Part shown: piece after piece, positions 20,133 to 43,879 of the stretch
How positions within the stretch are numbered: the stretch's first letter is position 1
Layout of the letters: each line of letters starts with the position of its first letter
Assembly: GCA_015059495.1 (NCBI GenBank)
Contig: SVAI01000001.1
Location: forward strand, 1,154,207-1,218,206
Length of the DNA stretch: 64,000 bases
Direction of reading: 5' to 3'
Source: Bacillota bacterium
Lineage (GTDB): Bacteria; Bacillota_I; Bacilli_A; RF39; UBA660
Made by a program: the position numbers and the translations under genes
The notes under the pieces: generated by a model
The model's database searches: none
Seen by the model: only the letters and a program-made list of their open reading frames with translations
Told to the model about the DNA's origin: nothing

Positions 20133-20699
20133 ATGAACTTACAAGGAGTTTTGGAAGGATTATTATTTGTAGTAGGGGATGAAGGTCTTACTATAAATCA
20201 AATCTGTGATAGTTTAGATATTAAAGAAGAAGAAGCAAAAGAATTATTACTTAAATTAAAACAATCATATGAAGATGAAAATAGAGGAATAAGAGTAAGT
20301 TTTCTAGGTGACGCTTTTAAACTTACAACTAAACCTGAACATAAAAGTTTCTATCAAAAATTATTATTAAATGAAGAAACTAATACTTTATCTGATTCAG
20401 CTTTAGAAACAGTTGCTTTAATAGCGTATCATCAACCAATAACAAGAATTGAAGTTGATAACTTAAGAGGTGTTTCAACAGCACATATAATCAGAAAACT
20501 AGTAGCTAAAGGCTTAATCAAAGAAGTTGGTAAATCAACAATGCCAGGTAGACCAAACCTTTATGGTACTACAAAAGAATTTTTAGATTACTTTGGTATG
20601 TCATCGCTTAATGACTTACCTAAATTACCTGAAGAAGAAGAACAAAAAGAAGAAGGGGACTTATTTACATCAATTTATAAAGAAGAAGTTGAAAACTAG
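20133..20699 (+). CDS. scpB: segregation and condensation protein B
   Basis: LEGLLFVVGDEGLT..., ALETVALIAYHQPITRIEVDNLRGV and GRPNLYGTTKEFLDYFG are ScpB winged-helix signatures. Follows scpA. Confidence 0.9.
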   Translation: MNLQGVLEGLLFVVGDEGLTINQICDSLDIKEEEAKELLLKLKQSYEDENRGIRVSFLGDAFKLTTKPEHKSFYQKLLLNEETNTLSDSALETVALIAYHQPITRIEVDNLRGVSTAHIIRKLVAKGLIKEVGKSTMPGRPNLYGTTKEFLDYFGMSSLNDLPKLPEEEEQKEEGDLFTSIYKEEVEN

Positions 20700-20712
20700 G
20701 AGGTTTTGGATT

Positions 20713-21327
20713 ATGTATGGAAGACTAATATATGTTTATGGAGCAATGGGAAGTGCTAAAACAGCAGAACTTTTAATAGAAGCGTATGCACATGAAGAAA
20801 AAGGATTTAAGGTTTGTTGTATAAAACCACAAAGAGACACTAGAGATAAAACTATTAAATCTAGAGCAGGAGACCTAGAAAGAGAAGCAGACTTTTTAGT
20901 TACTCCAGATGATGATTTATTTGAGTTAATTCCAGATGATGTTGATAGTTTATTTGTTGATGAAGTTCAATTTTTAACACCAGAACAAATAGATCAATTA
21001 AGAAAATTAACTATAGATAAACAAATGACTGTTTTAACATATGGTCTTAGAGCAGATTTCCAAACAAATGGATTTCCTGGTTCCATAAGATTATTTGAGG
21101 TAGCAGATGAAATAAGAGAAAAATATTACAATTGTAAATGTCATGGAAAAGCAACATACAATGCAAGATTCCTAAATGGTGAAATAGTTGTTGAAGGTGA
21201 TCAAGTAGCTATTGAAGGAGAAGATGGAATTCAATACAATTCAGTTTGTCCAGAATGCTATTATAGATTAAGAGAAGAACAACTAAAAAAACAACAAGGT
21301 CCAGTTAGAATTAGAAAGAAAGATTAA
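20713..21327 (+). CDS. tdk: thymidine kinase
   Basis: P-loop GAMGSAKT, FVDEVQFL Walker B and a C-terminal zinc ribbon (CKCHGKA...CPECY). AGGAGG RBS before ATG 20713 (the track's 20593 start overlaps scpB and is rejected). Confidence 0.9.
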   Translation: MYGRLIYVYGAMGSAKTAELLIEAYAHEEKGFKVCCIKPQRDTRDKTIKSRAGDLEREADFLVTPDDDLFELIPDDVDSLFVDEVQFLTPEQIDQLRKLTIDKQMTVLTYGLRADFQTNGFPGSIRLFEVADEIREKYYNCKCHGKATYNARFLNGEIVVEGDQVAIEGEDGIQYNSVCPECYYRLREEQLKKQQGPVRIRKKD

Positions 21328-21368: not shown

Positions 21369-21455
21369 GCCCTTGTGGCGGAATTGGTAGACGCGACGGA
21401 CTCAAAATCCGTTGGTAGCAATATCGTGTCGGTTCGAGTCCGACCAGGGGCACCA
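21369..21455 (+). tRNA. tRNA-Leu (anticodon CAA)
   Basis: Hand-folded cloverleaf: acceptor GCCCTTG/CAGGGGC, D-arm GCGGAATTGGTAGACGC, anticodon stem-loop ACGGA-CTCAAAA-TCCGT, long variable arm, T-arm GTCGG-TTCGAGT-CCGAC, encoded CCA. Confidence 0.9.
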
Positions 21456-21527
21456 ATGTATAAATAACAATCAGAAATGATTGTTTTTATTTTGTTCCAT
21501 GCTATAATGAATATAGGTGTGAATGTT

Positions 21528-21950
21528 ATGAACAATTTATATGATATGCTGAATTTATCAGGCAATAAAGAAGAAATAATAAAAGAATCTATAACAAAAA
21601 CAAGATATGATTTAAGAAATATAGTAGAGGCACAAAGATGTAAAATTTATTCTTCATATCTTAGTGATTTATTAAGAGAAAAGCACTTACCTAATAAAAT
21701 TATTAAAACAGGTAGTTTTTCTAATTATGATCATCATTTTGTATTAGTTCCTAAGAGTTCAGATATATATTATTTAATAGACTTAACATATTCACAATTT
21801 AATAATAGGGAATACTTTGAAGAATTACTTGAACAAGGTTATACTGAAGTAAATGATTCAATGTTAATAATTTACTTATCCATAGTTACAGGTCAAGTAA
21901 TAAATCAAAGCATAGATGATATTTATTTTGGTAATACTAAATCAAGATAA
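21528..21950 (+). CDS. hypothetical protein
   Basis: ORF track; AGGTGTGA RBS before ATG 21528 (the track's 21477 start lies in the tRNA trailer). No motif recognised. Confidence 0.4.
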   Translation: MNNLYDMLNLSGNKEEIIKESITKTRYDLRNIVEAQRCKIYSSYLSDLLREKHLPNKIIKTGSFSNYDHHFVLVPKSSDIYYLIDLTYSQFNNREYFEELLEQGYTEVNDSMLIIYLSIVTGQVINQSIDDIYFGNTKSR

Positions 21951-22626: not shown

Positions 22627-22703
22627 GTTCTCGTAGCTCAGCTGGATAGAGCACCACCCTCCTAAGGTGGGTGTCATGCGTTCAAATCGCATCGAGAACA
22701 CCA
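22627..22703 (+). tRNA. tRNA-Arg (anticodon CCU)
   Basis: Hand-folded: acceptor GTTCTCG/CGAGAAC, D-arm GCTC-AGCTGGATA-GAGC, anticodon arm CCACC-CTCCTAA-GGTGG, T-arm ATGCG-TTCAAAT-CGCAT, encoded CCA. TATAAT at 22613-22618. Confidence 0.9.
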
Positions 22704-23515: not shown

Positions 23516-23524
23516 AACTATAAA

Positions 23525-23554
23525 AAAAGTTCTAATCTATAAGAACTTTTTTTA
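23525..23554 (+). terminator. rho-independent terminator
   Basis: AAAAGTTCT-N8-AGAACTTTT followed by TTTT. Confidence 0.6.
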
Positions 23555-23625
23555 TTTATTATTTCTTTTAAATTGACTAATAATATGATAAAATGATTAT
23601 GTATGATAGATTGGAGAAATGATAT

Positions 23626-24159
23626 ATGAATAAGGTTGGGAAAGTTATAAGAAATATCTTAATAGGTATTTGGTTTGTTATAGCTGTTTTTACTACTGCA
23701 TGTTTACTATCTTATAATGATTTTAAGGTATCAACATTTGGTAAAAATTCATTAATAATTATTAATGATGATGAAATGGAAGAAGCAGGTTTTAACGAAG
23801 GTGATTTATTAGTAGTTAAAAGAAATAGCGATGCTAAAATCAATGTAGGTGATAAAGTATTCTATTACAATGCCAACAAAGATAGCGACGTAAATATCTT
23901 TACTGATGAAGTACAAGAAAAAGAAGCAGTAACTAAAACTGAAACAACTTATGTTCTAAATGGTAAAAAAGTATCTGGTGATTATGTAATTGGTACATTT
24001 AATAATACTAAAGTATATCATCACTTAGGAACAGTACTTGGAATTTTAACATCTAAATGGGGATTTATGTTCCTAGTTATATTCCCAACACTATTTGGAA
24101 CTATTTATGAAGTTATAATGATCGTAGACTTAGCAAAGTCAAATAAAGAAGAAGAGTAG
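23626..24159 (+). CDS. SipW-family (ER/archaeal-type signal peptidase I) paralogue with catalytic Ser and His replaced; probable pseudo-peptidase
   Basis: Same size and topology (N- and C-terminal TM) as the two SipW copies and collinear with them. The SGSMEP box reads DDEMEE and the THR(I/V) box reads FTDEV. Confidence 0.6.
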   Translation: MNKVGKVIRNILIGIWFVIAVFTTACLLSYNDFKVSTFGKNSLIIINDDEMEEAGFNEGDLLVVKRNSDAKINVGDKVFYYNANKDSDVNIFTDEVQEKEAVTKTETTYVLNGKKVSGDYVIGTFNNTKVYHHLGTVLGILTSKWGFMFLVIFPTLFGTIYEVIMIVDLAKSNKEEE

Positions 24160-24161
24160 TT

Positions 24162-24716
24162 ATGAAGATTAAACTATTAATATGTGCTGCTATACTATGT
24201 GGCATTACTGCACTAGTAGTATCAAACACATATGCATTATTTGAAACTAATGCTAGTGCAACATCAGACTTTCAAATAGGTAAATGGGTAATTAAATTAA
24301 ATAACAAAGACATATCACTATCTAAAATAATTACGCTAGATGATTTTACTTATGTTAATTCTACTCATGTTGAAGATGGCTATTTTGCGCCAACTTCAAA
24401 AGCAGAATTTGAAATTGATATTGATGCATCAGAAACTGATACATCAGTTGAATATACACTTGATATAGATGATTCAAATATTAGAGAATATCCCAATATA
24501 GGATTTAAAATTATTGATTTAGATACTAATCAAGAAACAACAGAAGTTAATATTTCTGGAATAATGTATCTAAATGATACAAATAAAACTAAAAGATATA
24601 AAATATCATTAGAATGGAACAATGATCCAGACTATGATGAATCAGATACAAGTTTAATTGGATCTGAATTACAATGTAAATTAAGTTTAGATTTCAAACA
24701 ATATCTAGGAGAATAA
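24162..24716 (+). CDS. secreted protein with SipW-cognate (TasA/camelysin-class) signal peptide
   Basis: Signal ...ALVVSNTYALFETNASATSDFQIGKWVIKLN resembles the TasA/CalY T-[WFY]-A-x-F motif. Paralogous to 31879-32472 (shared A/GxW..K(L/V)N and (Y/F)(F/I)APTS motifs). Confidence 0.6.
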   Translation: MKIKLLICAAILCGITALVVSNTYALFETNASATSDFQIGKWVIKLNNKDISLSKIITLDDFTYVNSTHVEDGYFAPTSKAEFEIDIDASETDTSVEYTLDIDDSNIREYPNIGFKIIDLDTNQETTEVNISGIMYLNDTNKTKRYKISLEWNNDPDYDESDTSLIGSELQCKLSLDFKQYLGE

Positions 24717-24734: not shown

Positions 24735-25520
24735 ATGGACCAAGTAAAAAACATAACGAAAAACATAATAAATATATTATGTGTAATACTATTTATTATT
24801 TTAGCACTTGTTATATATGCTAAATTAAGAGTTACGTTTTCAAATGATATTCATGCCAATTACTTCGGCGTAAGAATATTTGAAGTAGCAAGCGGTTCAA
24901 TGGAGCCAACTTTACAAATAAATGATGTATTACTAGTTAAAGTTAATGTAGATGATTTACAAAAAGATGATATAATCGCATATAAATCAGAAGATGCTAT
25001 AATAACACACAGAATTATTATGATTAATGATAATGATTTAATAGTAAAAGGGGACGCTAATAACACAGTTGATTCTCCAATTAAAAAAGAACAAGTAATC
25101 GGAAAAGTAGTTAAGGTCTTTCCACACCTTGGTATATGGAAAAAAATATTAACAGAGCCTAAGATACTAATATTAATATTTATTACTTTATTATTATTTG
25201 ATGGAGCTCTATCTTATAATGGTAAAGATAAGAAAAATAATAAAGAAGAAATTAAAAAAGAAGAAGTAAAAGAAATAAAGCAAGAACCTAAAAAAGAAGA
25301 CATCAAAGTAGATGTTGTTCAAGAGGATAATAAAACTAAAAACAATGATGATTTATTAACTAAATCAAAGATGCTTGCAAAACAAAACATAGATGAACTA
25401 TTAAAACAAGCAGAAGAGAAAATAGAAAAAGAAGAAGAACAAGTAGAAGAAGACACAGAATATACTATCAGGTTAGATTTAAATGAAATTCAAAAGAATA
25501 TAAATAAGTCTGTTAAGTAA
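24735..25520 (+). CDS. sipW: signal peptidase I, SipW type, with about 95-aa K/E-rich C-terminal extension
   Basis: Canonical boxes ASGSMEPT, ITHRII and KGDANN. TMs at the N-terminus and about aa 145-165, then a long charged tail. Confidence 0.85.
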   Translation: MDQVKNITKNIINILCVILFIILALVIYAKLRVTFSNDIHANYFGVRIFEVASGSMEPTLQINDVLLVKVNVDDLQKDDIIAYKSEDAIITHRIIMINDNDLIVKGDANNTVDSPIKKEQVIGKVVKVFPHLGIWKKILTEPKILILIFITLLLFDGALSYNGKDKKNNKEEIKKEEVKEIKQEPKKEDIKVDVVQEDNKTKNNDDLLTKSKMLAKQNIDELLKQAEEKIEKEEEQVEEDTEYTIRLDLNEIQKNINKSVK

Positions 25521-25535
25521 AGTGGGTGATGATAA

Positions 25536-26132
25536 GTGAAAAAAATAAAAGAGTTTTTAAATAATTTTAATAAGAAAACACTTAAACGTAGTTTACTATT
25601 TTCACTTATCGTTATGTTACTTATTATTACAATCGCAGCTTTTGATTTAACCCAAGCAAGATATGAAACAGCAACAGAAGTAAGAATTGAACCTGATTTA
25701 GCTTTTTTTATCGTAGATGTTGAAAGCCAAACTGGACAAATAAAATTAGAAAGTATGCTACCATCTACAACACCATATTTATATACATTTAATGTATCTA
25801 ATTTCAAAGATACTAAAAAAGCTAATGTAGATTTAAAATATTCAATTGAAATTATAACAACAACAAATATGCCACTTAACTATAAAGTGTATAAAGGTAC
25901 AAATACTAATAGTAATAAAGTATCAAATGATTACTTTGTTACTGATGATAATGGAATGTATTATCGCCATCTAGTAATAGATGATGTATCATATTTTAAC
26001 TATAATCAAAGACAAACTGATGTATATACACTTTGGGTAGAATATCCAATTGAATACAAAGCATATCCAAAAGAATATGCAGGTATTATAGATTTAGTGG
26101 ATATAAAAATAAATGCAGAGCAGGTAGTGTAA
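25536..26132 (+). CDS. secreted protein with variant SipW-type signal (…AFDLTQARYETATEV)
   Basis: Basic N-terminus, hydrophobic core and an A-[KR]-Y motif also found in 26134 and 31879. Beta-rich mature part. GTG start with GGGTGA RBS. Confidence 0.5.
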   Translation: MKKIKEFLNNFNKKTLKRSLLFSLIVMLLIITIAAFDLTQARYETATEVRIEPDLAFFIVDVESQTGQIKLESMLPSTTPYLYTFNVSNFKDTKKANVDLKYSIEIITTTNMPLNYKVYKGTNTNSNKVSNDYFVTDDNGMYYRHLVIDDVSYFNYNQRQTDVYTLWVEYPIEYKAYPKEYAGIIDLVDIKINAEQVV

Positions 26133-26133
26133 T

Positions 26134-27048
26134 ATGAAGAGATTAAGAAAATATTTAATAGTATTAATAATACTTGTTACACCATTATTTTTATATGGAA
26201 CATATACATTTGCTAAATATGTAACTGAAAAGTTCTTTAGTTACTATACTAATTCAAAGAACTTTTATTTCACAAGTAATATCTTAAAAGAAGATAATCC
26301 ACTATACCAAATTAATAACTGGGTAGGTATTGGACAATTTACTATCAACTTTGATTTATTATCATCAAAGAATGAATATGTTCATACTGATTATGATATT
26401 ACTTATGAAGCTTCAGTTACTTGTCCTAGTGATGTAATATGTGATTTAGACAAACCAACTGGAACAATACATGCTACAACACACAGTGATACATTACAAA
26501 TAACAGTAGCACCACAAAGGCTTTACACTGAAGGCCAAAAGATAACAATTCAAATTAGAGCGAAAACAACATCACCATATGTTAAAGAACTATATGCTAA
26601 ATATGAATATGTAGTTGGTAAAACTGGTGTTACATATGAAATAGAAGATAATGCTAATTCTCCATATCTATTACTTAAAATAACAAATGCAATTAACTAT
26701 TGTACAGTAATACAAGCTTTTGGAGAACATAATTTGCGTGATGCAATAGATGTTGATAACTACATGCAATTATCACAAACTGACAAAGCAAAATGTGTAA
26801 GTCAATATGCAAACTTTGGATTTGATCCAAATATGCTATTACTTGATACAACAAGTGAAGTAATAAAAAAAGCAACTTATGGAACTAGTAATGTAAATGG
26901 AAGAAACTATGTTAATTACATGAGATTTCCTCTAGATCCTTTAAGTAGTGTTGCTATAAAATTTTATAAGAATAACCCATCTGAAAACTATACTTATCCA
27001 GGAGTATATTCATGGAGTGTAATTTGGATTAACTTCCAAGAACCATAA
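26134..27048 (+). CDS. secreted protein with variant SipW-type signal (…GTYTFAKYVTEKF)
   Basis: N-terminal signal/anchor plus T-x-A-K-Y motif. 304 aa, beta-rich. Tightly coupled to the upstream gene (TAATATG). Confidence 0.5.
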   Translation: MKRLRKYLIVLIILVTPLFLYGTYTFAKYVTEKFFSYYTNSKNFYFTSNILKEDNPLYQINNWVGIGQFTINFDLLSSKNEYVHTDYDITYEASVTCPSDVICDLDKPTGTIHATTHSDTLQITVAPQRLYTEGQKITIQIRAKTTSPYVKELYAKYEYVVGKTGVTYEIEDNANSPYLLLKITNAINYCTVIQAFGEHNLRDAIDVDNYMQLSQTDKAKCVSQYANFGFDPNMLLLDTTSEVIKKATYGTSNVNGRNYVNYMRFPLDPLSSVAIKFYKNNPSENYTYPGVYSWSVIWINFQEP

Positions 27049-27065: not shown

Positions 27066-28040
27066 ATGGAATATAATATAATCAATACCTATATTAAGTT
27101 TATCAAAACAAAGCTAATTGATTTCTTTAGAATAGTACTTAGAAATAGATATCAAAAGTCTATAGTTGAATTATTTGTTGATAAATATATTGAAGTAAGA
27201 TATTTCAATGAAACTAATTACTATGAACAAAAAGATTTCATAAAAAGACTTAATAGTGACTTAATAGATGTTTATAGTGCTAATGTTGATGAAAAGAATT
27301 CTAATACTTTAAAAACAATAGTAGCTTTATTTGGATACTTAACATATTTGGACGATTTATGTTATATCAAAGAAGATCTTGAAGTAATTAAAACTCTATC
27401 TTTAGATAAGAATTTAAAAATAGATGATGCTCAAAACTTAGAACAAGAATTAAAAACATGGTATTACGCATTAAAAGCAAGTAAAGAAAAATTCCAAAAG
27501 TCTATTGGAACAAAAGAGTTTAATTTAACTGAAAAAAGAATATATAAAAATACTTTTGAAGTTAAATTAGAACATAATGTTAAAATATCATATTTATTTA
27601 GTGAAACAGCTATTAATAAAGCATATAACTCAGGTACAGTAAATGAAGATAAATTATTTATTACTTATATTTTAACTACATTTAATGTATTAAATAATGC
27701 TAATAATTTAGATTTCTCTAAAAAATATATTGTTGATATAGCGGAAAGTATTTTTTCAAAAGAAAAGAAAAGAGAAAGATTATTTAATATCTTAAATACT
27801 ACTTTAGCTAAAAAACATGTAAGTATTAAAATAAATTATAGTGATTATTTAGAACATAAAGAATTTATAAATAAAAAGATAAAAGAAGGTTACTCTTTCA
27901 GTGTTGTTCTAGATAAAGATGATGTAGATTTAAATGAATTAATATTATTTTCTTATGTTTATGTATATGAAGATAGTGAGTTATTTGATATAATAAGTAA
28001 TAATGAAAATAAAGTAAGCGCAAAGATTATTAAGATTTAG
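27066..28040 (+). CDS. hypothetical cytoplasmic protein
   Basis: ORF track; AAGGAG RBS. No TM or signal. No motif I can support. Confidence 0.5.
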   Translation: MEYNIINTYIKFIKTKLIDFFRIVLRNRYQKSIVELFVDKYIEVRYFNETNYYEQKDFIKRLNSDLIDVYSANVDEKNSNTLKTIVALFGYLTYLDDLCYIKEDLEVIKTLSLDKNLKIDDAQNLEQELKTWYYALKASKEKFQKSIGTKEFNLTEKRIYKNTFEVKLEHNVKISYLFSETAINKAYNSGTVNEDKLFITYILTTFNVLNNANNLDFSKKYIVDIAESIFSKEKKRERLFNILNTTLAKKHVSIKINYSDYLEHKEFINKKIKEGYSFSVVLDKDDVDLNELILFSYVYVYEDSELFDIISNNENKVSAKIIKI

Positions 28041-28051
28041 GTGGTGAAGTT

Positions 28052-29575
28052 ATGAATACATTTTTTAGATTCCTATATGAATTTTTATCACAATTATTTA
28101 ATGGTTTATTATTTGCAGTTCAAGGAATATTTAGATGCTTTAAAACTATATTCAATTTTGGTGAATATATAAGAATAGTAAATGAATATAAAAATGACTT
28201 CAATGGACCTGAATGGATATTTGTAGGACTAGCAATACTTTTAACACTTGCAGTTCTAGCAGCAATAGTATTCTTAATATACTTCATTGTAAGAAAAATA
28301 CTTAAGTTTAGAAAAACTTTAGTAGATCAAGAATCACTATTAGATGAAGTTGCACAACTTAATAATGAAGTTGCTAAACTATATAAAGAAAAAGAACAAA
28401 TATTAGCAATGAAGGTATCTAAATTAGGATTAAAGCCTGATGAATCAGATACTGAAGAAGCACCTGCTGAGGGTGATAATGTAGATCCTAATACAGAAAT
28501 TAGATTCCCTAAATTATATGATGTAGATGAAAGATATAAAGATTACAAAGTTGCAAATTATAATAATAGTTTTGAATTACCAGAACTAGTAGATTTATTT
28601 AGAAACTTTGCAGCATCTAAATTAAAACTATACTATAAACCAAATATGATAAGATTGTTTATTGCTTCCTTAGCATCTACTAAGTTAGTAATCTTACAAG
28701 GTATTTCTGGTACAGGTAAAACATCGCTTGCATATGCTTGGGGTAAATTTTTAAAACATGACTCATGTATCGCATCAGTTCAACCATCATGGAGAGATAG
28801 AACTGAGTTATTCGGATACTTTAACGAATTTACTAAACGTTTCAATGAAACAGAAGTTTTAAAAGAAATGTATGAAGCAGGTTATACTGATGATGTTTAT
28901 ACAGTAATCTTAGATGAAATGAACATCTCTCGTGTAGAATATTATTTCGCAGAAATGTTATCTATCCTAGAGATGCCAAATAAAGATGAATGGATCGTTG
29001 AAATCGTACCAAGTGCATGGAAAAACGACCCTAAACGTTTAATGGAAGGTAAATTAAAAATTCCACCAAATGTATGGTACATCGGAACAATCAACAACGA
29101 TGACTCAACATTCATGGTAACAGATAAGGTTTACGACCGTGCCATGCCAATTGATATCAACGACAAAGGTGAAGTATTTACACCAGATGAAGTTGATGCA
29201 CAAGATATTAATTACTCATATTTAGATAAGAAATTTACTGAAGCTATTCAAGCTAATCCAATACATCAAGAAAATTTAGATAAAATTGAAAGAATGGATA
29301 ACTATGTTATTCAACACTTCAGAATTGCCTTCGGTAACCGTATTGTTGCACACATGAGAAAGTTTGTACCAGTATATGTTGCCTGTGGTGGAGATGAAGT
29401 AGATGGTATTGATTACTTCATAGCACGTAAAATCTTAAGAAAATTTGAACAACTTAACATTGCTTATATTAGAGATGAAATAGATGGATTTGTTGATTTC
29501 TTAAATAAAGAATTCGGTGAAAATAAAATGCATGAATGCATTGAATATCTATTAAGATTAAAGAAGATGGCATAG
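28052..29575 (+). CDS. membrane-anchored McrB-family AAA+ GTPase-like protein
   Basis: TM at about aa 55-80, short coiled coil, then Walker A GISGTGKTS, Walker B VILDEMNISRVEYYFAEMLSILE and PPNVWYIGTINNDDSTFMVTDKVYDRAM. These are collinear with E. coli McrB DEINRAN...GEVMMLME and VYIIGLMNTADRSLAVVDYALRRRF; the NxxD motif is kept. Confidence 0.8.
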   Translation: MNTFFRFLYEFLSQLFNGLLFAVQGIFRCFKTIFNFGEYIRIVNEYKNDFNGPEWIFVGLAILLTLAVLAAIVFLIYFIVRKILKFRKTLVDQESLLDEVAQLNNEVAKLYKEKEQILAMKVSKLGLKPDESDTEEAPAEGDNVDPNTEIRFPKLYDVDERYKDYKVANYNNSFELPELVDLFRNFAASKLKLYYKPNMIRLFIASLASTKLVILQGISGTGKTSLAYAWGKFLKHDSCIASVQPSWRDRTELFGYFNEFTKRFNETEVLKEMYEAGYTDDVYTVILDEMNISRVEYYFAEMLSILEMPNKDEWIVEIVPSAWKNDPKRLMEGKLKIPPNVWYIGTINNDDSTFMVTDKVYDRAMPIDINDKGEVFTPDEVDAQDINYSYLDKKFTEAIQANPIHQENLDKIERMDNYVIQHFRIAFGNRIVAHMRKFVPVYVACGGDEVDGIDYFIARKILRKFEQLNIAYIRDEIDGFVDFLNKEFGENKMHECIEYLLRLKKMA

Positions 29576-29578
29576 TAT

Positions 29579-30688
29579 ATGAATGAATTAAAAGTATTAG
29601 ATTTATACCAAAATACACCTAAAGATAGATTAGAAAATTTCACTAATAATACTAGAGCTGAACTTAATATAAGCACAAATGTTAATAGAGTTGAAACAGA
29701 CTTCGAATGGTTAGAAATAATGGAAGATACAATAAGATATTTAGATAATATCTTAAGAAATCCTAATAGATTTATCGTTAATGAAGATGAAATAGTTAAA
29801 GTTGAACTTGCACGTCGTATTACAGTAGAATCTATTCGTCATTTATCTAAACATACTAACTTTATTCAAAAGATTGAAGATAATGGTGATGTTAAACCAT
29901 CTAAAATATTAAATATTAATAAAGAAGAAAGTTACGATACATATGAAAATAGACTTATCTATACATTAATAGATAATATGCGTAACTTTCTTGAAATAAA
30001 AAAGAAGAGTTTAATAACTTCTTCTTCTGTTAAAGATGTTAAGAAAGCTAGCTATAGTGCTAGAACAAAAGTGGGAAATGAAAACGTTTTTGTAGAGATG
30101 AGTTATTCATCAAGCTTAAACGAAAAAGTAGGCCCACAAGGTGAAGATTCACTAGAAAATAGAATTAAAAGATTAGATGATGATATAACTATGCTATCTA
30201 ATACAGATGTTATTAAAGCATTAAAAAAGGCTCACGTAGCAAGAGTTATACCACCAATAAAAAAGACTAATGTTATTTTAAAAAATACTAACTTTCAATA
30301 TGCAATGAAACTATGGGATTTCTTACAAAATCACGTAGCTAATGATGATAAAGTTATTAAGAGTAATAAGTCTTATGAAGAAAATGGTATATTAAAAGAT
30401 TATATGAATTCAACATTCTTACTTAATTATTTAGCAATGAATACCTTAAGCGATACATCACAAGGTAAAGCTGCAACTAAACAAGCAGTAGATGAAATTA
30501 CTGATAAATTAGTACAAAGAATTGTTGAATTAAACGTAGATATGCCTATGTCGGAATTAAAAGAAAGAATAGGAGATAAGATTGCTATAACAAGATATAA
30601 GACTGAAGCGTCTTTATCTGAAGTTAGCAATACATTCTCTAAACACATTAAAACTTATTTAGAAAAAATAGAAAATATAGAATTGTAG
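29579..30688 (+). CDS. McrC N-terminal / DUF2357-like protein lacking a recognisable nuclease domain
   Basis: EESYDTYENRLIYTLIDNM parallels E. coli McrC NEDTLANRIIKSTLAIL, and NTNFQYAMKLWDFL parallels NTRYYKFVISVCKFI. No D...(D/E)xK block follows. Gene lies 3 nt after the McrB-like gene. Confidence 0.55.
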   Translation: MNELKVLDLYQNTPKDRLENFTNNTRAELNISTNVNRVETDFEWLEIMEDTIRYLDNILRNPNRFIVNEDEIVKVELARRITVESIRHLSKHTNFIQKIEDNGDVKPSKILNINKEESYDTYENRLIYTLIDNMRNFLEIKKKSLITSSSVKDVKKASYSARTKVGNENVFVEMSYSSSLNEKVGPQGEDSLENRIKRLDDDITMLSNTDVIKALKKAHVARVIPPIKKTNVILKNTNFQYAMKLWDFLQNHVANDDKVIKSNKSYEENGILKDYMNSTFLLNYLAMNTLSDTSQGKAATKQAVDEITDKLVQRIVELNVDMPMSELKERIGDKIAITRYKTEASLSEVSNTFSKHIKTYLEKIENIEL

Positions 30689-30696
30689 GTATCAAC

Positions 30697-31233
30697 ATGA
30701 AGGTAATATGGAAAATTTTTAAAGGAATACTAATCGCATGCTTAGTAATTATGTTAATATTTGTTATATTTCAAAAAGTAACAGATTCAAAATTAGCAAT
30801 AGGTAATATATATGTATTCCAAGTAGCTACTGAATCAATGACTCCAGAATATCAAGTTGGAGACATAATTGTTGTTAAAAAAGCTGATGCTTCAAAAATA
30901 GAAGTAGGCGATGATGTAACATATTTAGGAAAGAAAAGCGACCTTAAAAATAAAAAAATAACTCACCGAGTTATAACTAAGAACAAAAAAGAAGATAAAT
31001 ATTATTTTGTAACTCAAGGTATTGCTAATGAAAATGCAGACCCTGAAATAAGTGAAGATGATATTTATGGAAAGGTTGCTTATCATGCAATTATTCTAAG
31101 TTTTATTGGTAGAATTATGATGAATCCTATAGCATATTATGTAATATTTATTTTAGTAGCAGCAAGTTTTTCATATGAAACAATTACATCATTTCTTGTT
31201 AAAAAGGATGATATAGATGAAGAAGAAAAGTAA
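30697..31233 (+). CDS. sipW: signal peptidase I, SipW type (Ser and His boxes intact, Asp box variant)
   Basis: ATESMTPE and ITHRVI boxes. The GDxN box reads GIANEN. N- and C-terminal TM helices. Confidence 0.8.
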   Translation: MKVIWKIFKGILIACLVIMLIFVIFQKVTDSKLAIGNIYVFQVATESMTPEYQVGDIIVVKKADASKIEVGDDVTYLGKKSDLKNKKITHRVITKNKKEDKYYFVTQGIANENADPEISEDDIYGKVAYHAIILSFIGRIMMNPIAYYVIFILVAASFSYETITSFLVKKDDIDEEEK

Positions 31234-31849
31234 GAAAAATAAAAAGAAATTACTTATCCTAAGATTAGTATTTGTATTCTTTTTAGTAGTTTCAAATACT
31301 TTTGCATGGTTTATTTATATTACAAGAGTTGATAACAGTGTTAATGTGCATGTTAAATCTTGGGATGTTACATTTCAAAGTGGTGAACATGAAATATCAA
31401 ATAATGTAGTAGTAGATATCGAAAATTTATATCCTGGTATGGCAGACTTTAATTATGAAATTAAAGCATTTAATAGATCTGAAGTATCAGCTACTTTATC
31501 TTATACTATATTAGAGGCTAGAATATTTGAAGATGAATACGTAACAGTTGAGGGTAGAGAACTTAATGGAGATGATCCGGTTGCAACAGATTTAACAAGT
31601 GCACAACTAGAAACTAAATTAAGAACTGAATACCCATTTACTATTCGTATAACATTATCTAGTGATACAATAGACAGTGAAAATGGTAATGAGTTATTTA
31701 CACTGGGTGCTGTATGGCCTTATGAAAGTGGAGATGATGAATTAGACACAGAGTGGGGAATACGTGCAGCAACTTATAAAAAACAACATCCAACATTACA
31801 AAGCATAACACTAAAAATAAGACTTGATATAACACAAAATCAGGATTAA
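31217..31849 (+). CDS. secreted protein with SipW-cognate signal peptide (…VVSNTFAWFIYITRVDNS)
   Basis: Lys-rich N-terminus, hydrophobic core and T-F-A-W-F motif. Overlaps the SipW gene by 17 nt. VWPYESGDDELD resembles the W-x-EG-x-D motif of 32675 and 33403. Confidence 0.55.
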   Translation: MKKKSKKNKKKLLILRLVFVFFLVVSNTFAWFIYITRVDNSVNVHVKSWDVTFQSGEHEISNNVVVDIENLYPGMADFNYEIKAFNRSEVSATLSYTILEARIFEDEYVTVEGRELNGDDPVATDLTSAQLETKLRTEYPFTIRITLSSDTIDSENGNELFTLGAVWPYESGDDELDTEWGIRAATYKKQHPTLQSITLKIRLDITQNQD

Positions 31850-31879
31850 AAAAGAATTATATTAATTTATAATTCTTTT
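31850..31879. terminator. bidirectional terminator between convergent TasA-like genes
   Basis: Perfect 12-bp stem AAAAGAATTATA / TATAATTCTTTT with a 6-nt loop, flanked by A-run and T-run. Confidence 0.6.
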
Positions 31880-32472
31880 TAATTTGCTCTTTGAATAAAG
31901 TTGATATTAACGTTTAAACTTGTTGTTTCGTCTTTAGAAGCAGCTGTATCAGCATCATTATCCATTGTTTCACCAGTTCCATCAATCCATTGAACAAAGA
32001 ATCTAAATGTATCTTGAGAAGTGGCAGAACCTAGTAAATGAGTTAAAGATATTTCATCACCAGCATCAATAGATACTAATGGACCTCCATTTAAAGTATA
32101 TCCAGTTAATACTAAATCAGTTACAGAACTATCATCTGGGTAACTAACACTAACAGTTTCATCAAAAGATACTCCAACTTCACTATAATCAACAATTACA
32201 TCAAAGTGGCCAGTACTAGTAGGTGCGATAAAACCTTCTTTAATATTTGAATTAGTATCTATAACAGGAACAATAGTACTTGAAAAATCACTTTCAGCTA
32301 ATACATCTTGATCATTAACTTTAAAAGTCCATTGAGCAATAGTAAAGTTAGAACTAGCAGAGGCACTAGATATATATTTAGCATATGATTCTTGAATAGT
32401 GTTAGTTAAAACTAATAAAGATATCATAGCAAGTAAAAGTTTAAACTTTGCAGTCTTTAAACAATTCAACAT
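31879..32472 (-). CDS. secreted protein with SipW-type signal (…IQESYAKYISSASASSNFTIAQWTFKVN), paralogue of 24162-24716
   Basis: AGGAGG RBS 7 nt before the ATG. Signal peptide plus A-K-Y motif. Shares FIAPTS and the C-terminal beta-strand pattern with 24162. Confidence 0.6.
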   Translation of the reverse strand: MLNCLKTAKFKLLLAMISLLVLTNTIQESYAKYISSASASSNFTIAQWTFKVNDQDVLAESDFSSTIVPVIDTNSNIKEGFIAPTSTGHFDVIVDYSEVGVSFDETVSVSYPDDSSVTDLVLTGYTLNGGPLVSIDAGDEISLTHLLGSATSQDTFRFFVQWIDGTGETMDNDADTAASKDETTSLNVNINFIQRAN

Positions 32473-32674: not shown

Positions 32675-33397
32675 ATGGCAAAAGAGGTAATAGTAAGTGC
32701 CAAAAAGGTACGTAAACGAAAAATTTTAAACAGGGCAGTTAGACTTGCATTACTTGGTTTGTTACTATTCTTGCTAATACTTTATATCATATTAGCAATA
32801 ATTTATAACGAAGGTAAATTCACCGTAATATTAGACTCTAATAAAACTCTACAGAGTGGTATAGCAATATACGACAATATTAACGACACTATTGGTAAGA
32901 GAAAATTAGAAGCCGAATCCATAAGATTTATGGATAATATCTCATTTAAATGGTTACCAGAATACATCGATGCAGATGAATTATATGGTCCACATAATGG
33001 AGATAACTACATAGCTTATACATTCTTTGTAGAAAATCAAAATACTGAAGTATTAAATTATTGGTATGAAGTAGTAGTTGATGATGTTATCAAGAATGTA
33101 GATGAAGCAATAAGAATTAGGATATATCGTAATGGAGAATCCACAACATACGCAAAGAAGAGCAACTTAGATGATACTCCAGAACAAGGAACGACACCAT
33201 TTAGAAACATTAAAGATGCTGAAAGTTCTATCATACTAGAAGAAGTTGACAATTTTCAACCTGGACAAAGAGATCGTATAACTGTAGTCGTATGGCTTGA
33301 AGGAGACGATCCAGACTGTACAGACCCACTAATAGGTGGAGAACTTAAAATGCATATGGTTATAACTGAAAATCATACAGAACCAAAAGAGGAGTGA
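32675..33397 (+). CDS. membrane-anchored protein sharing a C-terminal W-x-EG-x-D-x-DC domain with the adjacent TasA-like subunit
   Basis: Basic cytoplasmic N-terminus, one TM (LALLGLLLFLLILYIILAIIY) and no TasA-type cleavage motif. VVVWLEGDDPDCTDPLIGGELKMHMVI parallels RIYMWIEGQDIDCENNATGSDIEFNLQL in 33403. Confidence 0.55.
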   Translation: MAKEVIVSAKKVRKRKILNRAVRLALLGLLLFLLILYIILAIIYNEGKFTVILDSNKTLQSGIAIYDNINDTIGKRKLEAESIRFMDNISFKWLPEYIDADELYGPHNGDNYIAYTFFVENQNTEVLNYWYEVVVDDVIKNVDEAIRIRIYRNGESTTYAKKSNLDDTPEQGTTPFRNIKDAESSIILEEVDNFQPGQRDRITVVVWLEGDDPDCTDPLIGGELKMHMVITENHTEPKEE

Positions 33398-33402
33398 AAA
33401 AC

Positions 33403-34383
33403 ATGGCTAAAAGAAAATCAAATAAAAAGAAAGTGACTAGTTTAATACTACTTTTATTACTAAGTATTGTAATGCTTGGTACTACAACTTATGCATGGTT
33501 TACTGCAAACCAAGTAGTAACAATCAATTCAATCAATGTTAAGGTAGAAGCTAGTAACGGTTTACAAATTTCAACAAATGCAGCACAATGGAAATCAGTA
33601 ATTACAAACTCGGATATCCTAGCAGGATATACTGGTAGTGTTAACCAATTTCCAATTTATGTAACAAACGTATCTACAGATAGTACTGTAGATCAAACTG
33701 CTGGTAGATTAAATATGTATAGAGCTGTAGTAGGTAACGATGCTACTACCGGTGATTATAATATTTATACTGCAAAAGAAACTGATACTGCAGGAAGTAC
33801 AGGAAATTATGTTGCATTCGATATATTCTTAAGAGTTGATAAAACACAAACAATTTACTTAACATCAGATTCTGATGTAGTAGCTAAAGAAGGAACTGAA
33901 GATAGAGGACTTAAAAATGCAGCTCGTATTGCATTCGTAACATTAGGTCACGGTGAATCTACAGATTCTGTATCATCATTAACAGGTTTAAGAAACAATG
34001 TATCTGCTAAAGCACTTATTTGGGAACCAAATGCAGATGCTCATACACAAATGGTATCTGACACAGTTGCTCCAGAATATAATGTAACATTAGTAGCAGG
34101 AGCTAACACTCCATACTATGGCGTAAATAAAGCAATTTCTACACCAGTAAATTTAAAGGAATTAGTTAATGGAACTAACGGTACTGATGCTACATTAGTA
34201 AATCCTGGAATTGTAACAAAAGAATCAAATGCAGTATATAAAGAAGCATTTGACTTAGCTGCTGGAGTTACAAAAATGAGAATTTATATGTGGATTGAAG
34301 GACAAGATATCGACTGCGAAAACAATGCTACAGGATCTGATATTGAATTCAATTTACAATTAAGTACAGAGTCAGGAGACTAG
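33403..34383 (+). CDS. secreted TasA/camelysin-class protein, candidate major fibre subunit
   Basis: Signal KKKVTSLILLLLLSIVMLGTTTYAWFTANQ (T-Y-A-W-F-T). Thr/Ser/Asn/Gly-rich beta protein. AGAGGAG RBS before ATG 33403. Followed by a strong terminator. Confidence 0.6.
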   Translation: MAKRKSNKKKVTSLILLLLLSIVMLGTTTYAWFTANQVVTINSINVKVEASNGLQISTNAAQWKSVITNSDILAGYTGSVNQFPIYVTNVSTDSTVDQTAGRLNMYRAVVGNDATTGDYNIYTAKETDTAGSTGNYVAFDIFLRVDKTQTIYLTSDSDVVAKEGTEDRGLKNAARIAFVTLGHGESTDSVSSLTGLRNNVSAKALIWEPNADAHTQMVSDTVAPEYNVTLVAGANTPYYGVNKAISTPVNLKELVNGTNGTDATLVNPGIVTKESNAVYKEAFDLAAGVTKMRIYMWIEGQDIDCENNATGSDIEFNLQLSTESGD

Positions 34384-34400
34384 GCATAAAATTAATAATT

Positions 34401-34427
34401 AAAATGAGAAGAAATTCTCATTTTTTT
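34401..34427 (+). terminator. rho-independent terminator/attenuator between the subunit gene and the giant gene
   Basis: AAAATGAGAA-GAAA-TTCTCATTTT followed by TTT. Confidence 0.7.
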
Positions 34428-34477: not shown

Positions 34478-37400
34478 ATGCAAGCACGAACTAATATATC
34501 TAAAAATAAATTAGTTTTAATCATGCTAATAACAGCACTAGCTGTTATTTTGTCGTGGGTTGCTATTAAAGTATTTACTGCATCGGTTGAAGATTCTTCA
34601 TGGAATGGAGTAGTTGCTACATCCTTTAAAAGTGGAACAGGTAGTACTTCCAACCCATATGTAATTTCTTCATCTGCAGAATTTGCATACTTCAAACAAT
34701 TAATGGAAGGTAATAGTGCTACACTATATGCTTCTAAAAATTATGAAATAACAATCGGACTTAATTATGGTGATCATGATATTTCAATTAATAACACAAT
34801 TCCTTTTAGTGGAACAATAGATGGTAAAGGTAATACAATCTATAATGCTAATATAACTAATGGATTATTTAATGAATTATCTAATGCTACTATTAAAAAT
34901 TTAGCATTTAATAATACTGATTATACTTTAGATGATGAACAAGGTGGTTTCTTAGCAGACTCTATTACATCATCTACAATTGAAATGGTTGTAATAGATT
35001 CTAAAATAGTAAAAGGAAATGACGAATATATTGTAAGTGGTATTACTAATTCATCTACTTCATCAACATATAACAAGGTAGTTGTATATAATAAATATCA
35101 AGGAACTTATGGTACTAATACAACATACAATATTGCGCACTTATCAAATAGTGATTCATATACTAATGTCTTAACTAACCAAAATGGATTTAATAACTTT
35201 AGTAATGCTAATCACGAAATAAAAAGATTTACTGTTAGCAACAATAACACACTAACTTATAGTCAAATGGCTGACTTTAGTGATACTGATTATGAAATAG
35301 TAATTAACAGTACTCAATTTGTATTAAGAGAAAAAGTTCAACAAGCAACTAATCCTACATCAGCAGAACATGCAACTGGAAGAGAAGGTAATACAATTTA
35401 TTTAAATAATTTAGATGCTGATTTTGGTTTCTATTCGGGTTTAAATTATACTTACTCAAGTGATTATAAATTACCAACAATGGTAAGTAAAAATATTTAT
35501 ACAGATACAACTTTAGTTAAAGCAACAATTACTTATTCTGGTATTGAAACAAATAGTAATCAAACATTAACTGGTACTATTTCTTCAACAGAAAACTATA
35601 ACAAAATAGTTTATTATGATTATCTACCAGTAGAAAACAATAAAGTTAAAATTACTTTAATAGATAATCCATTTACAAATAGACCTAATGGTAAAGGATT
35701 TAACAACTGGATAAGTGATACCGTTGGAGTAACACTTTCATATGACTTAGTTAGATATGAAAGATTTGCAGAAATAGCTTTAACAAGAAATGCACAAGGT
35801 ACATATGATCCTATCACATTAGACTTCCATGCAAGTTGGGTTGATGCAACTGAATATGGTTTAACTGGTAATAACTGGACAAACGCATTTAACACTTTCA
35901 AATCAAAAGGTTTAGAACAAATTGAAGTATCAAGAGAAGAATGTGGACCAGTAATGGATCAATATTATAGATATGCAGTAGCAGCAAGATATTCATACTA
36001 TACTGGTTATTATCAAAGTGGTAATTCATGGTACAACGCAAATAATAGATATTGTAATACCAGAAATGGATGTCCATACTATTATGATGTTCCTGAAGGT
36101 GAAATATATCAACCTGGAACAACATATTACTATTTTCAAAATAATGCATTCCATCAATTAGATACAACTGGATATCAAGTAACTTGTGAAACAATACAAC
36201 TTGTTAATTCAAACTTTATAACAGCTGGATATTATACAGAAAAGACATTTAGTAGAAATCAATCAATAAATGGTTATTATAATGCAAATGGTGAACCTGT
36301 ATCTGGAACATGTACATCATCAAGTTGTACATATTATGAATTTATTCAATCATATACAAGTAATGGTCAAAGACCTCTAGTAGACTTTTCAAAGAAATAT
36401 TATTACTTAGTTACTAGAGATACTAACATAGCTTATCTAACTGGAGATATTACAAACTATTGGAGTAGTTCACAAAATAAACCATTTACTTTGACTGGTC
36501 TACATAATGGTACTCAAACATCATATGACTGGACAGTAACAAATAATGTTATAACATTACAAAATGATACAACAATAGAGCACTTAACAATTTATAACAA
36601 TAAAAGCTTTAATACTTTAGACCCACAGCCAAGTGTATCAAGTGGTGGATGGTGGTCTTCTACAACATACTATTCAGCAATAAATGCAAACTGGCATAAT
36701 TTAAAAGTGGGTAGAGGATTAAAACAATATAGTACTAATAATCCAACATTCGATTATATCTGGGGTGGATCAAGTGCAGTAAGTAGTAGTTCATCATCAG
36801 GTTACTACAACATGATTATTGAATCTGGTCACTATGATTCAATGGCGTATACTTTGCCATATAATAATGGTTCAACAATATATGTAGATAATAAAACAGT
36901 GTTAGGCTGTGATGTTGATAAAGTACTAGATACTAACAACAATAACTTATCAGTATACTATGAAGCTGCTGCATCATTTTCTGGAACAATATATCCTAAA
37001 GTAGAAATAGCAACAGACCTAACAGTTAAGAGTGGTAAGTTTGGTACATCAAAAGAGGACATGTATACAGGTATCTATGTTGGTGGATTAACAAGTGGTA
37101 CAAACTATGCTGCAAGAAAAATAAAAGTTGAAGGTGGATACATCTATAACTTAATCGGTGGACCTTTAACACACGAAAATAGAAAACAATATAATGACTC
37201 TTATATTTATATGACTGGTGGAGAAGTCGATATTATTATCGGTGGTGCCGGTAGATCTCCAACATATGGTAATCGTATAATTCAAGTTACTGGTGGTAAA
37301 GTTAACTATGGTGTCTTAGGCGGATCTAATGGATCTGGTTCAGATACCCAAGATGGAGACGGAGTTGTTAATGGTTCATCTTACCTATATATAGGTGGTA

Positions 37401-42223: not shown

Positions 42224-42233
42224 GGTATAAAAT

Positions 42234-42380
42234 ATGAATATTAATAACATTAAAAATTTAAGTAATAATGAAATACTACAGTTAAGATCAAAAATAGTAC
42301 AACATGTCGAAACATTGGAAGAAAAAAAGAATAAGGTGGAAGAAATAAATGCTGGAAAATCTGCAAAACCAACTAGATGA
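42234..42380 (+). CDS. possible small ORF (48 aa) absent from the ORF track
   Basis: ATG 42234 is 10 nt after the giant gene stop. Encodes MNINNIKNLSNNEILQLRSKIVQHVETLEEKKNKVEEINAGKSAKPTR*. Overlaps the next gene's start by 32 nt in another frame. Confidence 0.3.
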   Translation: MNINNIKNLSNNEILQLRSKIVQHVETLEEKKNKVEEINAGKSAKPTR

Positions 42381-43848: not shown

Positions 43849-43851
43849 AAG

Positions 43852-43879
43852 AAAATCTAGAATACTAGATTTTTTTTTA
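43852..43879 (+). terminator. rho-independent terminator closing the accessory locus
   Basis: AAAATCTAG-AATA-CTAGATTTT followed by a long T-run. Confidence 0.7.

Follow-up and report, generated by a model that had tools for sequence, protein, structure and literature searches.

A membrane-anchored McrB-type GTPase and its partners, very probably a CoCoPALM system, within a predicted SipW operon of a Bacillota bacterium

McrBC is the textbook GTP-driven restriction motor. In this system the N-terminal domain of McrC inserts into the McrB ring and stimulates GTP hydrolysis, as two papers describe (PMC6624300, PMC7680126). The branch of McrB-type GTPases that comprises the CoCoNuT and CoCoPALM systems is defined by an NxD signature followed by an acidic residue (Bell et al., 2024, eLife, PMC11090510). 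In the passages of that paper that concern it, the name CoCoPALM is given to NxD-type McrB GTPases with a transmembrane helix and coiled coil at the N-terminus, a region described as FtsB-like, together with McrC partners, which usually bear a coiled coil too, and with signal-peptidase neighbours of the pilus-assembly kind; the class receives one paragraph there, its analysis being deferred to a future paper. We found no later paper that uses the name, and the supplements of PMC11090510 that were examined contain nothing on it. Here we report on a 64,000-nucleotide stretch of DNA from a Bacillota bacterium (assembly GCA_015059495.1, contig SVAI01000001.1, positions 1,154,207 to 1,218,206; this whole stretch is called the window, and its G+C content is about 26%), in which the genes for a cytoplasmic protein, here called X324, an McrB-like GTPase and an McrC-like partner lie side by side among genes for SipW-type signal peptidases and small secreted proteins. 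An NxD signature, a transmembrane segment, a DUF2357 partner and SipW neighbours are all present, which argues from the sequence, and in our judgement with high confidence, that the trio belongs to CoCoPALM, a named and uncharacterised class, and is not a new kind of system. An original prediction made from this DNA had held that a role for the trio in either fibre assembly or defence would be new; the earlier naming of the class overtakes that claim. The trio and the landmarks of its GTPase are as follows, with positions counted from the start of the window.

27066-28040, + strand: X324, the third component, predicted cytoplasmic, 324 amino acids (aa); helical N-terminal half, then a modelled EAL-like alpha/beta barrel
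28052-29575, + strand: McrB-like AAA+ GTPase, very probably of CoCoPALM type, 507 aa; identified by McrB homology, motifs and transmembrane helix
28214-28294, + strand: predicted transmembrane helix of the GTPase, aa 55-81; hydropathy scan up to 3.08, same position in homologues
28700-28723, + strand: Walker A motif GISGTGKT of the GTPase, aa 217-224; G217, G220, G222 and K223 invariant
28913-28918, + strand: Walker B residues D288-E289 of the GTPase, invariant or 99% conserved, followed by invariant N291, R294 and E296
29093-29104, + strand: signature N348-N349-D350-D351 of the GTPase, NxD(D/E) in an alignment of 129 homologues
29579-30688, + strand: McrC-like partner, 369 aa; DUF2357 at aa 25-149, that is, nucleotides 29651-30025

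The three open reading frames (ORFs) lie where they had been predicted, with 11 nt between the first two and 3 nt before the McrC-like ORF. From its N-terminus the GTPase is made up of an amphipathic segment, the transmembrane helix, a short coiled coil, an acidic linker and the GTPase domain. Its sole specific relative in the PDB is E. coli McrB, which is reached by a single-sequence search (E=2.5e-4, aa 162-365), by a profile of 35 family sequences (E=1.7e-5) and by profile-profile alignment with hhalign (probability 96.9%, E=1.8e-10, 168 columns), so that the McrB identity first proposed by eye is upheld by profile methods. The NCBIfam McrB model matches the same region (E=5e-5), and Pfam AAA_5 matches 31 of the 35 family members. 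HMMER aligns Walker B (ILDEMN) and the block downstream with E. coli McrB just as they had been drawn by eye. Residue conservation, scored in the alignment of 129 homologues, is complete or nearly so at G217, G220, G222, K223, D288, E289, N291, R294, E296, R363, G428 and R430, and around the signature at T346, N348, D350, S352 and T353. The signature itself had been read as the NxxD motif of McrB; in this family it is NxD(D/E), since N348 and D350 never vary, residue 349 does, and position 351 holds Asp in 91 and Glu in 33 of the 129 sequences (Asp or Glu in 124). An ungapped alignment places D/E351 opposite D336 of E. coli McrB, and the two might be functionally equivalent.

The transmembrane helix is followed by the segment RKILKFRK, a charge cluster of +3, which indicates that the GTPase domain faces the cytoplasm, and the short helical segment after the helix matches designed and natural coiled coils. 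In place of a DNA-binding domain, for which the N-terminus gives no match in Pfam or NCBIfam, there are thus a transmembrane helix and a short coiled coil, as originally described. The likeness of this region to FtsB or FtsL is weak with plain hidden Markov models (HMMs), FtsL matching at E=0.16-0.72 and DivIC in one of 35 family members. Taken together, the sequence comparisons identify ORF 28052 as an NxD-branch McrB-type AAA+ GTPase, predicted to be anchored on the cytoplasmic side of the membrane by a single transmembrane helix and a short coiled coil.

The partner, ORF 29579, matches Pfam DUF2357 (PF09823, the McrC N-terminal domain) at aa 25-149 with E=8.6e-12 and 45.3 bits against a cut-off of 23.3, and PF09823 is a precomputed annotation of nearly all its top homologues. 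Two McrC landmarks had also been aligned by eye; both exist in E. coli McrC, and the alignment itself finds no support, as neither BLASTP (E=1.0) nor hhalign (E=0.3) relates the two proteins significantly, so that the DUF2357 match is what stands. The family profile has no match among PDB sequences at E<=10. The nuclease is missing, as predicted: a Pfam search of ORF 29579 gives no match at E<=1 to PD-(D/E)xK or any other nuclease, nothing corresponds to the D244...D257-A-K259 block of E. coli McrC, and none was found in nine variant homologues. The C-terminal 100 or so residues are predicted to be helical in an AlphaFold2 (AF2) model whose mean confidence (predicted local distance difference test, pLDDT) is 52.6. 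On this evidence ORF 29579 is a protein that retains the McrC N-terminal domain alone. A cryptic nuclease or other effector, which had been suggested as a thing to look for, was found neither in this ORF nor in X324, nor in any other protein of the locus. Clostridial McrC-like proteins (L060, L065, L067-L070, L073-L077, L081 and L082 in our numbering of related loci; for example L070:11569-13743) are longer, at 680-850 aa, with about 330 DUF2357-like residues followed by 350-500 residues of KEKA-type charged coiled coil; those of L065 and L082 have a further C-terminal globular segment of about 130 aa.

The pair shares with E. coli McrBC the AAA+ GTPase core, both Walker motifs, Arg and Asp residues that align, a partner from the McrC N-terminal domain family and the gene order, GTPase first and the partner next, here after 3 nt. 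It differs from McrBC in that a transmembrane helix and coiled coil replace the N-terminal DNA-binding domain, NxD(D/E) stands where McrB has NxxD, the PD-(D/E)xK nuclease has no counterpart, the partner shows no detectable similarity to E. coli McrC itself, and the genes sit in a secretion or fibre operon whereas McrBC occupies a restriction locus. The CoCoNuTs are the sister group within the NxD branch, and a soluble relative of the window's GTPase (P0159, 43% identity over the GTPase domain) adjoins UPF1-like AAA_11/AAA_12 helicases, as CoCoNuTs do; CoCoNuTs are soluble and always occur with HEPN or other nucleases, whereas the window's system is membrane-anchored, nuclease-less and linked to SipW. 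Membership of CoCoNuT was rejected on the membrane anchor and the lack of a nuclease in the locus. With CoCoPALM the trio has in common the NxD GTPase, the N-terminal transmembrane helix and coiled coil, the adjacent DUF2357 homologue and the signal-peptidase-family genes, and the clostridial relatives bear the very long coiled coils on the McrC homologue. Unlike the class as described, the window's McrC-like protein is short (369 aa), with a modest helical tail and not an extensive coiled coil, and the FtsB homology of the GTPase N-terminus is not reproduced by plain HMMs.

The setting of the trio is the second part of our argument. Besides the trio, the surrounding run of genes contains three SipW-like genes and four small secreted proteins:

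23522-23553, + strand: terminator of the upstream lipoprotein gene, a low-G+C hairpin with T-run (deltaG -9.6 kcal/mol, relaxed scan); 5' boundary of the operon
23626-24159, + strand: SipW-like pseudo-peptidase, 177 aa; weak TIGR02228/SipW matches and alignment with paralogues
24162-24716, + strand: small secreted protein, 184 aa; N-terminal hydrophobic segment, then NTYALFET; orthologues at the same position
24735-25520, + strand: SipW-type (archaeal or endoplasmic-reticulum type) signal peptidase I; TIGR02228 E=2.7e-25, 89 bits against a cut-off of 51.85; Ser and His intact
25536-26132, + strand: small secreted protein, 198 aa; from its sequence and its relatives
26134-27048, + strand: secreted protein, 304 aa; GTYTFAKY after the signal anchor
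30697-31233, + strand: second intact SipW-type signal peptidase, 178 aa; TIGR02228 E=3e-25, Ser and His intact in alignment
31217-31849, + strand: small secreted protein, 210 aa, last gene of the operon; NTFAWF motif
31852-31877, no strand assigned: AT-rich perfect palindrome with T-runs on both sides (deltaG -7.3 kcal/mol, relaxed scan); 3' boundary of the operon

The ten genes between 23626 and 31849 lie on one strand, and every gap is under 20 nt or an overlap. A relaxed terminator scan returned strong intergenic hairpins with T-runs only at 23522-23553, 31852-31877, 34402-34423 and 43850-43875, none of them between 23626 and 31849, in line with the earlier statement that no terminator interrupts the operon. 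The standard scan, which demands G+C-rich stems, was empty on the + strand and missed the 31852-31877 palindrome because of its low G+C; this palindrome separates the convergent genes 31217-31849 (+) and 31879-32472 (-) and probably acts as a terminator in both directions. Promoter-like hexamers follow the upstream terminator at about 23567-23600. The trio therefore lies within an operon bounded by terminators, and is predicted to share its transcript with several SipW-type secreted proteins, two active SipW peptidases and a SipW-like protein that is inactive.

The SipW identity of the neighbours, proposed earlier, is secure for ORFs 24735 and 30697 (TIGR02228, E~3e-25 for both), and the accompanying label TasA for the secreted proteins was not confirmed. 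The first SipW-like protein, ORF 23626, differs from its paralogues in having DEM for GSM/ESM and TDE for THR, so that Glu and Asp replace the catalytic Ser and His; it is probably an inactive pseudo-peptidase, to judge from the alignment, and its orthologues keep the same position in many relatives. The peptidase at 24735 ends in a lysine/glutamate-rich tail of about 100 aa, predicted to be cytoplasmic; this charged tail could possibly serve as a docking site for the trio.

To see how widely this arrangement recurs, one genome per species was scanned with the GTPase, giving at least 595 matching stretches, of which the best 80 loci (54-80% identity) were compared by matching the window's proteins to all their ORFs; 76 of these loci are informative for neighbours. 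Of the 76 loci that extend far enough, 75 have an McrC-like gene next to the GTPase; a SipW-type peptidase likewise occurs in 75 of 76, and the same families of secreted proteins recur. The closest relatives of the window are gut and rumen metagenome-assembled genomes labelled Bacilli, Tenericutes or Erysipelotrichaceae, and the 80 loci also span Clostridia, Oscillospiraceae, Ruminococcus and Acutalibacteraceae. The link to SipW and secreted proteins holds even at 35-39% GTPase identity, where the gene order is sec240-sec329-GTPase in L086 and sec240-sec329-GTPase-McrC-SipW in L100 (sec240 and sec329 being the 240-aa and 329-aa secreted proteins listed below).

Beyond these loci there are more than 8,000 representative GTPase homologues at E<1e-3, the top 150 of which fall into three architectures: proteins of 450-540 aa with one or two transmembrane helices, the window's type; polytopic proteins with 4-6 transmembrane helices; and soluble proteins of 700-870 aa. 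The polytopic, soluble and viral relatives occur without SipW, and one polytopic relative adjoins a rolling-circle Rep gene. Among 2.9 million viral contigs there is no member of the window's clade; the 12 viral matches are all distant soluble forms lacking SipW. In another relative (L099:6692-14923) two tandem GTPase genes of 465 and 493 aa are followed, respectively, by a 604-aa McrC-like gene and by a gene for a 1141-aa surface protein of transglutaminase / antigen I/II type; giant LRR (leucine-rich repeat) surface proteins surround the cluster, and no SipW was detected there.

Conservation, expressed as median identity to orthologues in three tiers of relatives, is very uneven across the locus. 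The GTPase stands at 73/65/56% over the three tiers and the McrC-like protein at 46/40/35%, while X324 is at about 30%, the SipW paralogues at 28-41% and the secreted proteins at 29-50%. In the closest tier this amounts to 73% for the GTPase against 32-50% for the other components, and no other gene of the locus comes close to the GTPase in constraint, a pattern that fits a mechanoenzyme with multiple contacts better than a defence gene under diversifying selection.

X324, the third component, has no match in Pfam, NCBIfam or PADLOC, and only 176 homologues are detectable. In 33 of 71 loci it is encoded next to the GTPase on the upstream side, and in 11 further loci (L044, L050, L054-L056, L058, L059, L064, L066, L072 and L075; for example L066:7749-10004) its place directly upstream is taken by a SipW-X324 fusion protein of 633-756 aa. 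The fusion consists of an N-terminal SipW peptidase (transmembrane helix, peptidase, transmembrane helix), an acidic low-complexity linker and a C-terminal domain that the X324 HMM covers from one end to the other (E=1e-21 to 1e-31). As the second transmembrane helix of SipW returns the chain to the cytoplasm, X324 would be placed at the cytoplasmic face of the peptidase, and the fusion is direct evidence that the trio and SipW act together. Clostridial loci lack X324, and there a plain SipW gene precedes the GTPase. An AF2 model of X324 (pLDDT 86.3, predicted template-modelling score 0.84), searched against the PDB with Foldseek, gave as its top 19 matches EAL domains only, among them those of Bd1971, FimX and MorA (E=8.7e-5 to 2e-2, probability 0.99-1.0, template-modelling scores 0.35-0.55). 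Sequence searches gave no sign in X324 of the residues (EAL, DDFGTG and others) that EAL domains conserve for catalysis and cyclic di-GMP (c-di-GMP) binding, and the model suggests a degenerate EAL-like domain.

Further secreted and surface proteins belong to the conserved neighbourhood on the far side of the bidirectional terminator:

31879-32472, - strand: convergent small secreted protein, 197 aa; position and orientation kept in relatives
32675-34383, + strand: two conserved secreted proteins of 240 aa and 329 aa, the latter with a TTYAWFT motif
34478-43848, + strand: giant surface protein of 2581 aa and a 499-aa protein, both of which accompany the locus in many relatives

After the hydrophobic segment, all but one of the seven small secreted proteins show an [ST]-[YF]-A-x-[FY] motif, which we take to resemble the signal-peptide region of TasA; the TasA label stays unverified. 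ORF 24162 is a member of a fibre-subunit-like family and is paralogous to ORF 31879-32472. Of these proteins the 329-aa one alone matches the SipW-dependent signal-peptide model TIGR04088, at 16.5 bits and so below the cut-off of 19. Its family (33394-34383) ends in a conserved W-x-EGQD-x-DC-x-NN and the 197-aa family (31879-32472) in W-x-DG-x-x-ETMDN-x-ADT; these acidic or Cys-containing C-terminal motifs could be metal-binding or cross-linking sites. The 2581-aa protein (34478-42223) carries a signal anchor at its N-terminus and long stretches of YGG-N-type repeats; it has no match in Pfam or NCBIfam, and pieces of its orthologues accompany the locus in about 25 of 80 relatives. Like the tapA-sipW-tasA operon of B. 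subtilis and sipW-bsaABC of C. perfringens, the locus combines a dedicated SipW-type peptidase with small secreted proteins that bear the [ST]-[YF]-A-x-[FY] motif after the signal anchor. Unlike them it contains McrB- and McrC-like genes, which those operons lack, its secreted proteins are not detectably homologous to TasA or BsaA, and it has three SipW paralogues and about seven secreted proteins.

We lean, with somewhat better than even confidence, towards the explanation that the trio works as a switch or motor, driven by GTP and coupled to the SipW-dependent assembly of fibres, leaving open between the two whether the GTPase does mechanical work or acts as a switch only. The GTPase would form a membrane-tethered hexamer for which the McrC-like protein would be the activating plug, and the EAL-like X324 would dock this complex on the cytoplasmic face of SipW, where it may sense a nucleotide signal such as c-di-GMP; the GTP cycle would gate or power the processing, release or polymerisation of the secreted fibre subunits. 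The two readings first offered for the locus were a fibre role of this kind and a defence module that had landed in it, and the evidence favours the former, because the arrangement recurs in 75 of 76 loci and persists at 35-39% GTPase identity, because the trio lies in a terminator-bounded operon and because SipW is fused to X324 in 11 loci.

The fibre role is also plausible because there are precedents for its parts. FimX is a degenerate EAL-domain c-di-GMP receptor that governs type IV pilus assembly, and FimX-type domains control pilus NTPases. The likeness to the FimX-PilZ-PilB system is one of functional analogy only: in both a degenerate EAL-fold protein, here a modelled one, stands beside an NTPase (a pilus-associated one in that system), and the EAL domains of FimX are among the best structural matches of the X324 model; against this, X324 and FimX are not homologous in sequence, neither GGDEF nor PilZ genes were seen in the locus, and the NTPase is of McrB type, not of PilB type. 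The second precedent concerns secretion itself, since SipW-dependent secretion of BsaA and BsaC in C. perfringens depends on an NTPase-driven apparatus resembling the type IV pilus, or on type IV pilus-associated genes (PMC11580942).

A number of points weigh against this explanation. The family descends from defence systems, and a JGI annotation of the partner reads 'predicted component of viral defense system'. To our knowledge, fibres of the TasA type assemble extracellularly by donor-strand exchange and use no NTPase, so that the role of a cytoplasmic motor is unclear. The secreted proteins have no Pfam match to TasA/BsaA (Peptidase_M73), and profiles of two of their families searched against the PDB and Pfam found no match to TasA, CalY or AbpA. 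The EAL-like fold of X324 rests on one AF2 model with modest template-modelling scores; at the sequence level there is no Pfam EAL match at E<=1 and no profile match among PDB sequences, and the putative 'EAL' glutamate, Glu169, is Lys or His in the SipW-fused versions. The AF2 model of the McrC-like protein gave noise only in Foldseek and is too poor to inform on the plug fold. In one locus (L002:3317-8267, 40% GTPase identity) a trio of 384, 500 and 324 aa directly follows a phage lysis cassette of holin and M23/LysM lysin, and its 8.7-kb contig contains no SipW. The hexamer, the GTP specificity and the interaction with SipW are steps that we infer, and no experiment on any CoCoPALM component exists.

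A bolder form of the fibre role, which we put forward tentatively and hold to be less probable, is that CoCoPALM loci encode an NTP-powered surface-filament machine of a previously unrecognised kind, whose parts would parallel those of the type IV pilus while having a different ancestry. It would comprise several subunits resembling pilins, SipW peptidases of its own, one of them inactive, and a giant tip or adhesin protein; the membrane-tethered McrB-type GTPase ring with its McrC-derived plug would be the motor, and the EAL-like nucleotide sensor attached to the peptidase would be the control input.

The strongest rival, though in our view an unlikely one, is that the trio is an anti-phage system, of the abortive-infection or surveillance type, guarding a surface fibre that phages use as receptor; the GTPase would sense infection at the base of the fibre and shut down the cell or the fibre, with the membrane segment, SipW or an unrecognised protein as effector. 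Its descent from the McrBC/CoCoNuT defence branch speaks for such a role, as do the JGI 'viral defense' annotation of the partner, the position of the L002 trio directly after a holin and lysin cassette, the polytopic relative beside a rolling-circle Rep gene and the chromosomal context of the locus, which differs between the window and another locus (L001). PADLOC also matches the GTPase core (aa 191-315) to its candidate model PDC-M26A at E=4e-35. This match reflects domain homology only, because it is about equally strong for all three GTPase architectures and the trio partners of the GTPase match nothing in PADLOC. Membership of PDC-M26 was rejected, as the A model alone gives a match, confined to the GTPase core; a literature search returned no mention of PDC-M26.

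Against an anti-phage role, the searches of the locus proteins and their variants brought up no nuclease, HEPN or other effector, whereas the nuclease-less McrC homologues of CoCoNuTs are always paired with another nuclease, as stated in the sections of Bell et al. that treat them (2024, PMC11090510). The genes also lie inside a terminator-bounded fibre operon with near-universal synteny across 80 species, their clade is absent from the viral contigs searched, and the GTPase is far more conserved than its neighbours, which is the opposite of what an arms race would lead one to expect.

Less likely again, and in our estimate improbable, is a membrane quality-control or extraction machine, in which an AAA+ ring activated by the McrC-like plug would clear signal peptides and uncleaved or mis-inserted subunits from around SipW, keeping a high-flux secretion site clear without driving assembly. 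A membrane-tethered ring of the AAA_5/MoxR-dynein-McrB lineage (AAA_5 being found in 31 of 35 members) would suit this task, as would the many signal-anchored substrates, which a catalytically dead SipW paralogue could hold, and the fusion of the third component to SipW. On the other side, we know of no McrB-type ring that threads polypeptides, there is no protease domain in the trio, and in McrBC the pore is occupied by McrC (PMC6624300, PMC7680126). The present data do not separate quality control from a role in fibre assembly.

Chance juxtaposition, with a decaying McrBC remnant inserted between fibre genes, is highly improbable, for while decay might in principle account for the missing DNA-binding and nuclease domains, the catalytic residues are all invariant in 129 homologues, representative homologues exceed 8,000, the arrangement is the same in 75 of 76 informative loci and the ORFs are intact and tightly coupled; a plain decayed remnant was rejected as contradicted by the locus survey.

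Several features of the flanks may be recorded here. The chromosomal neighbours are ScpA/ScpB and thymidine kinase in the window and YefM/YoeB, HtrA-like and Abi_2 genes in L001, and given these differing flanks it is possible that the locus is mobile. An Rfam scan of the whole window for c-di-GMP or other riboswitches returned two tRNAs only, tRNA-Leu(CAA) at 21369-21455 and tRNA-Arg(CCT) at 22627-22703, just upstream of the locus. ORF 21477-21950 (157 aa) weakly matches the papain-like dermonecrotoxin fold family Tox-PLDMTX (E=5.8e-4, under the cut-off). The thymidine-kinase-like ORF 20593-21327 is listed with a TTG start that overlaps ScpB by about 100 nt; its true start is probably an internal Met just ahead of the P-loop YVYGAMGSAKT.

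The locus thus presents a branch of the McrBC family that has neither DNA recognition nor nuclease and is locked into SipW fibre operons in at least several hundred species of gut and rumen Firmicutes; these losses and the tie to SipW suggest that the engine has been re-used for something at the membrane. The passages of PMC11090510 on the class do not mention X324, the SipW-X324 fusion, the pseudo-SipW or the extreme conservation of the GTPase; the operon structure, the near-universal synteny, the GTPase conservation, the modelled EAL-like fold of X324 and the SipW fusion are new here, and they make the question of what CoCoPALM does directly testable. If the more tentative view of a filament machine were true, it would be the first job of the McrBC engine outside defence and outside nucleic acids. 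If a role in fibre assembly is borne out, fibres of the SipW/TasA type would gain a step of energy-dependent control with no counterpart in the B. subtilis model, and the finding would also bear on how abundant uncultured Bacilli and Clostridia of the gut attach to surfaces.

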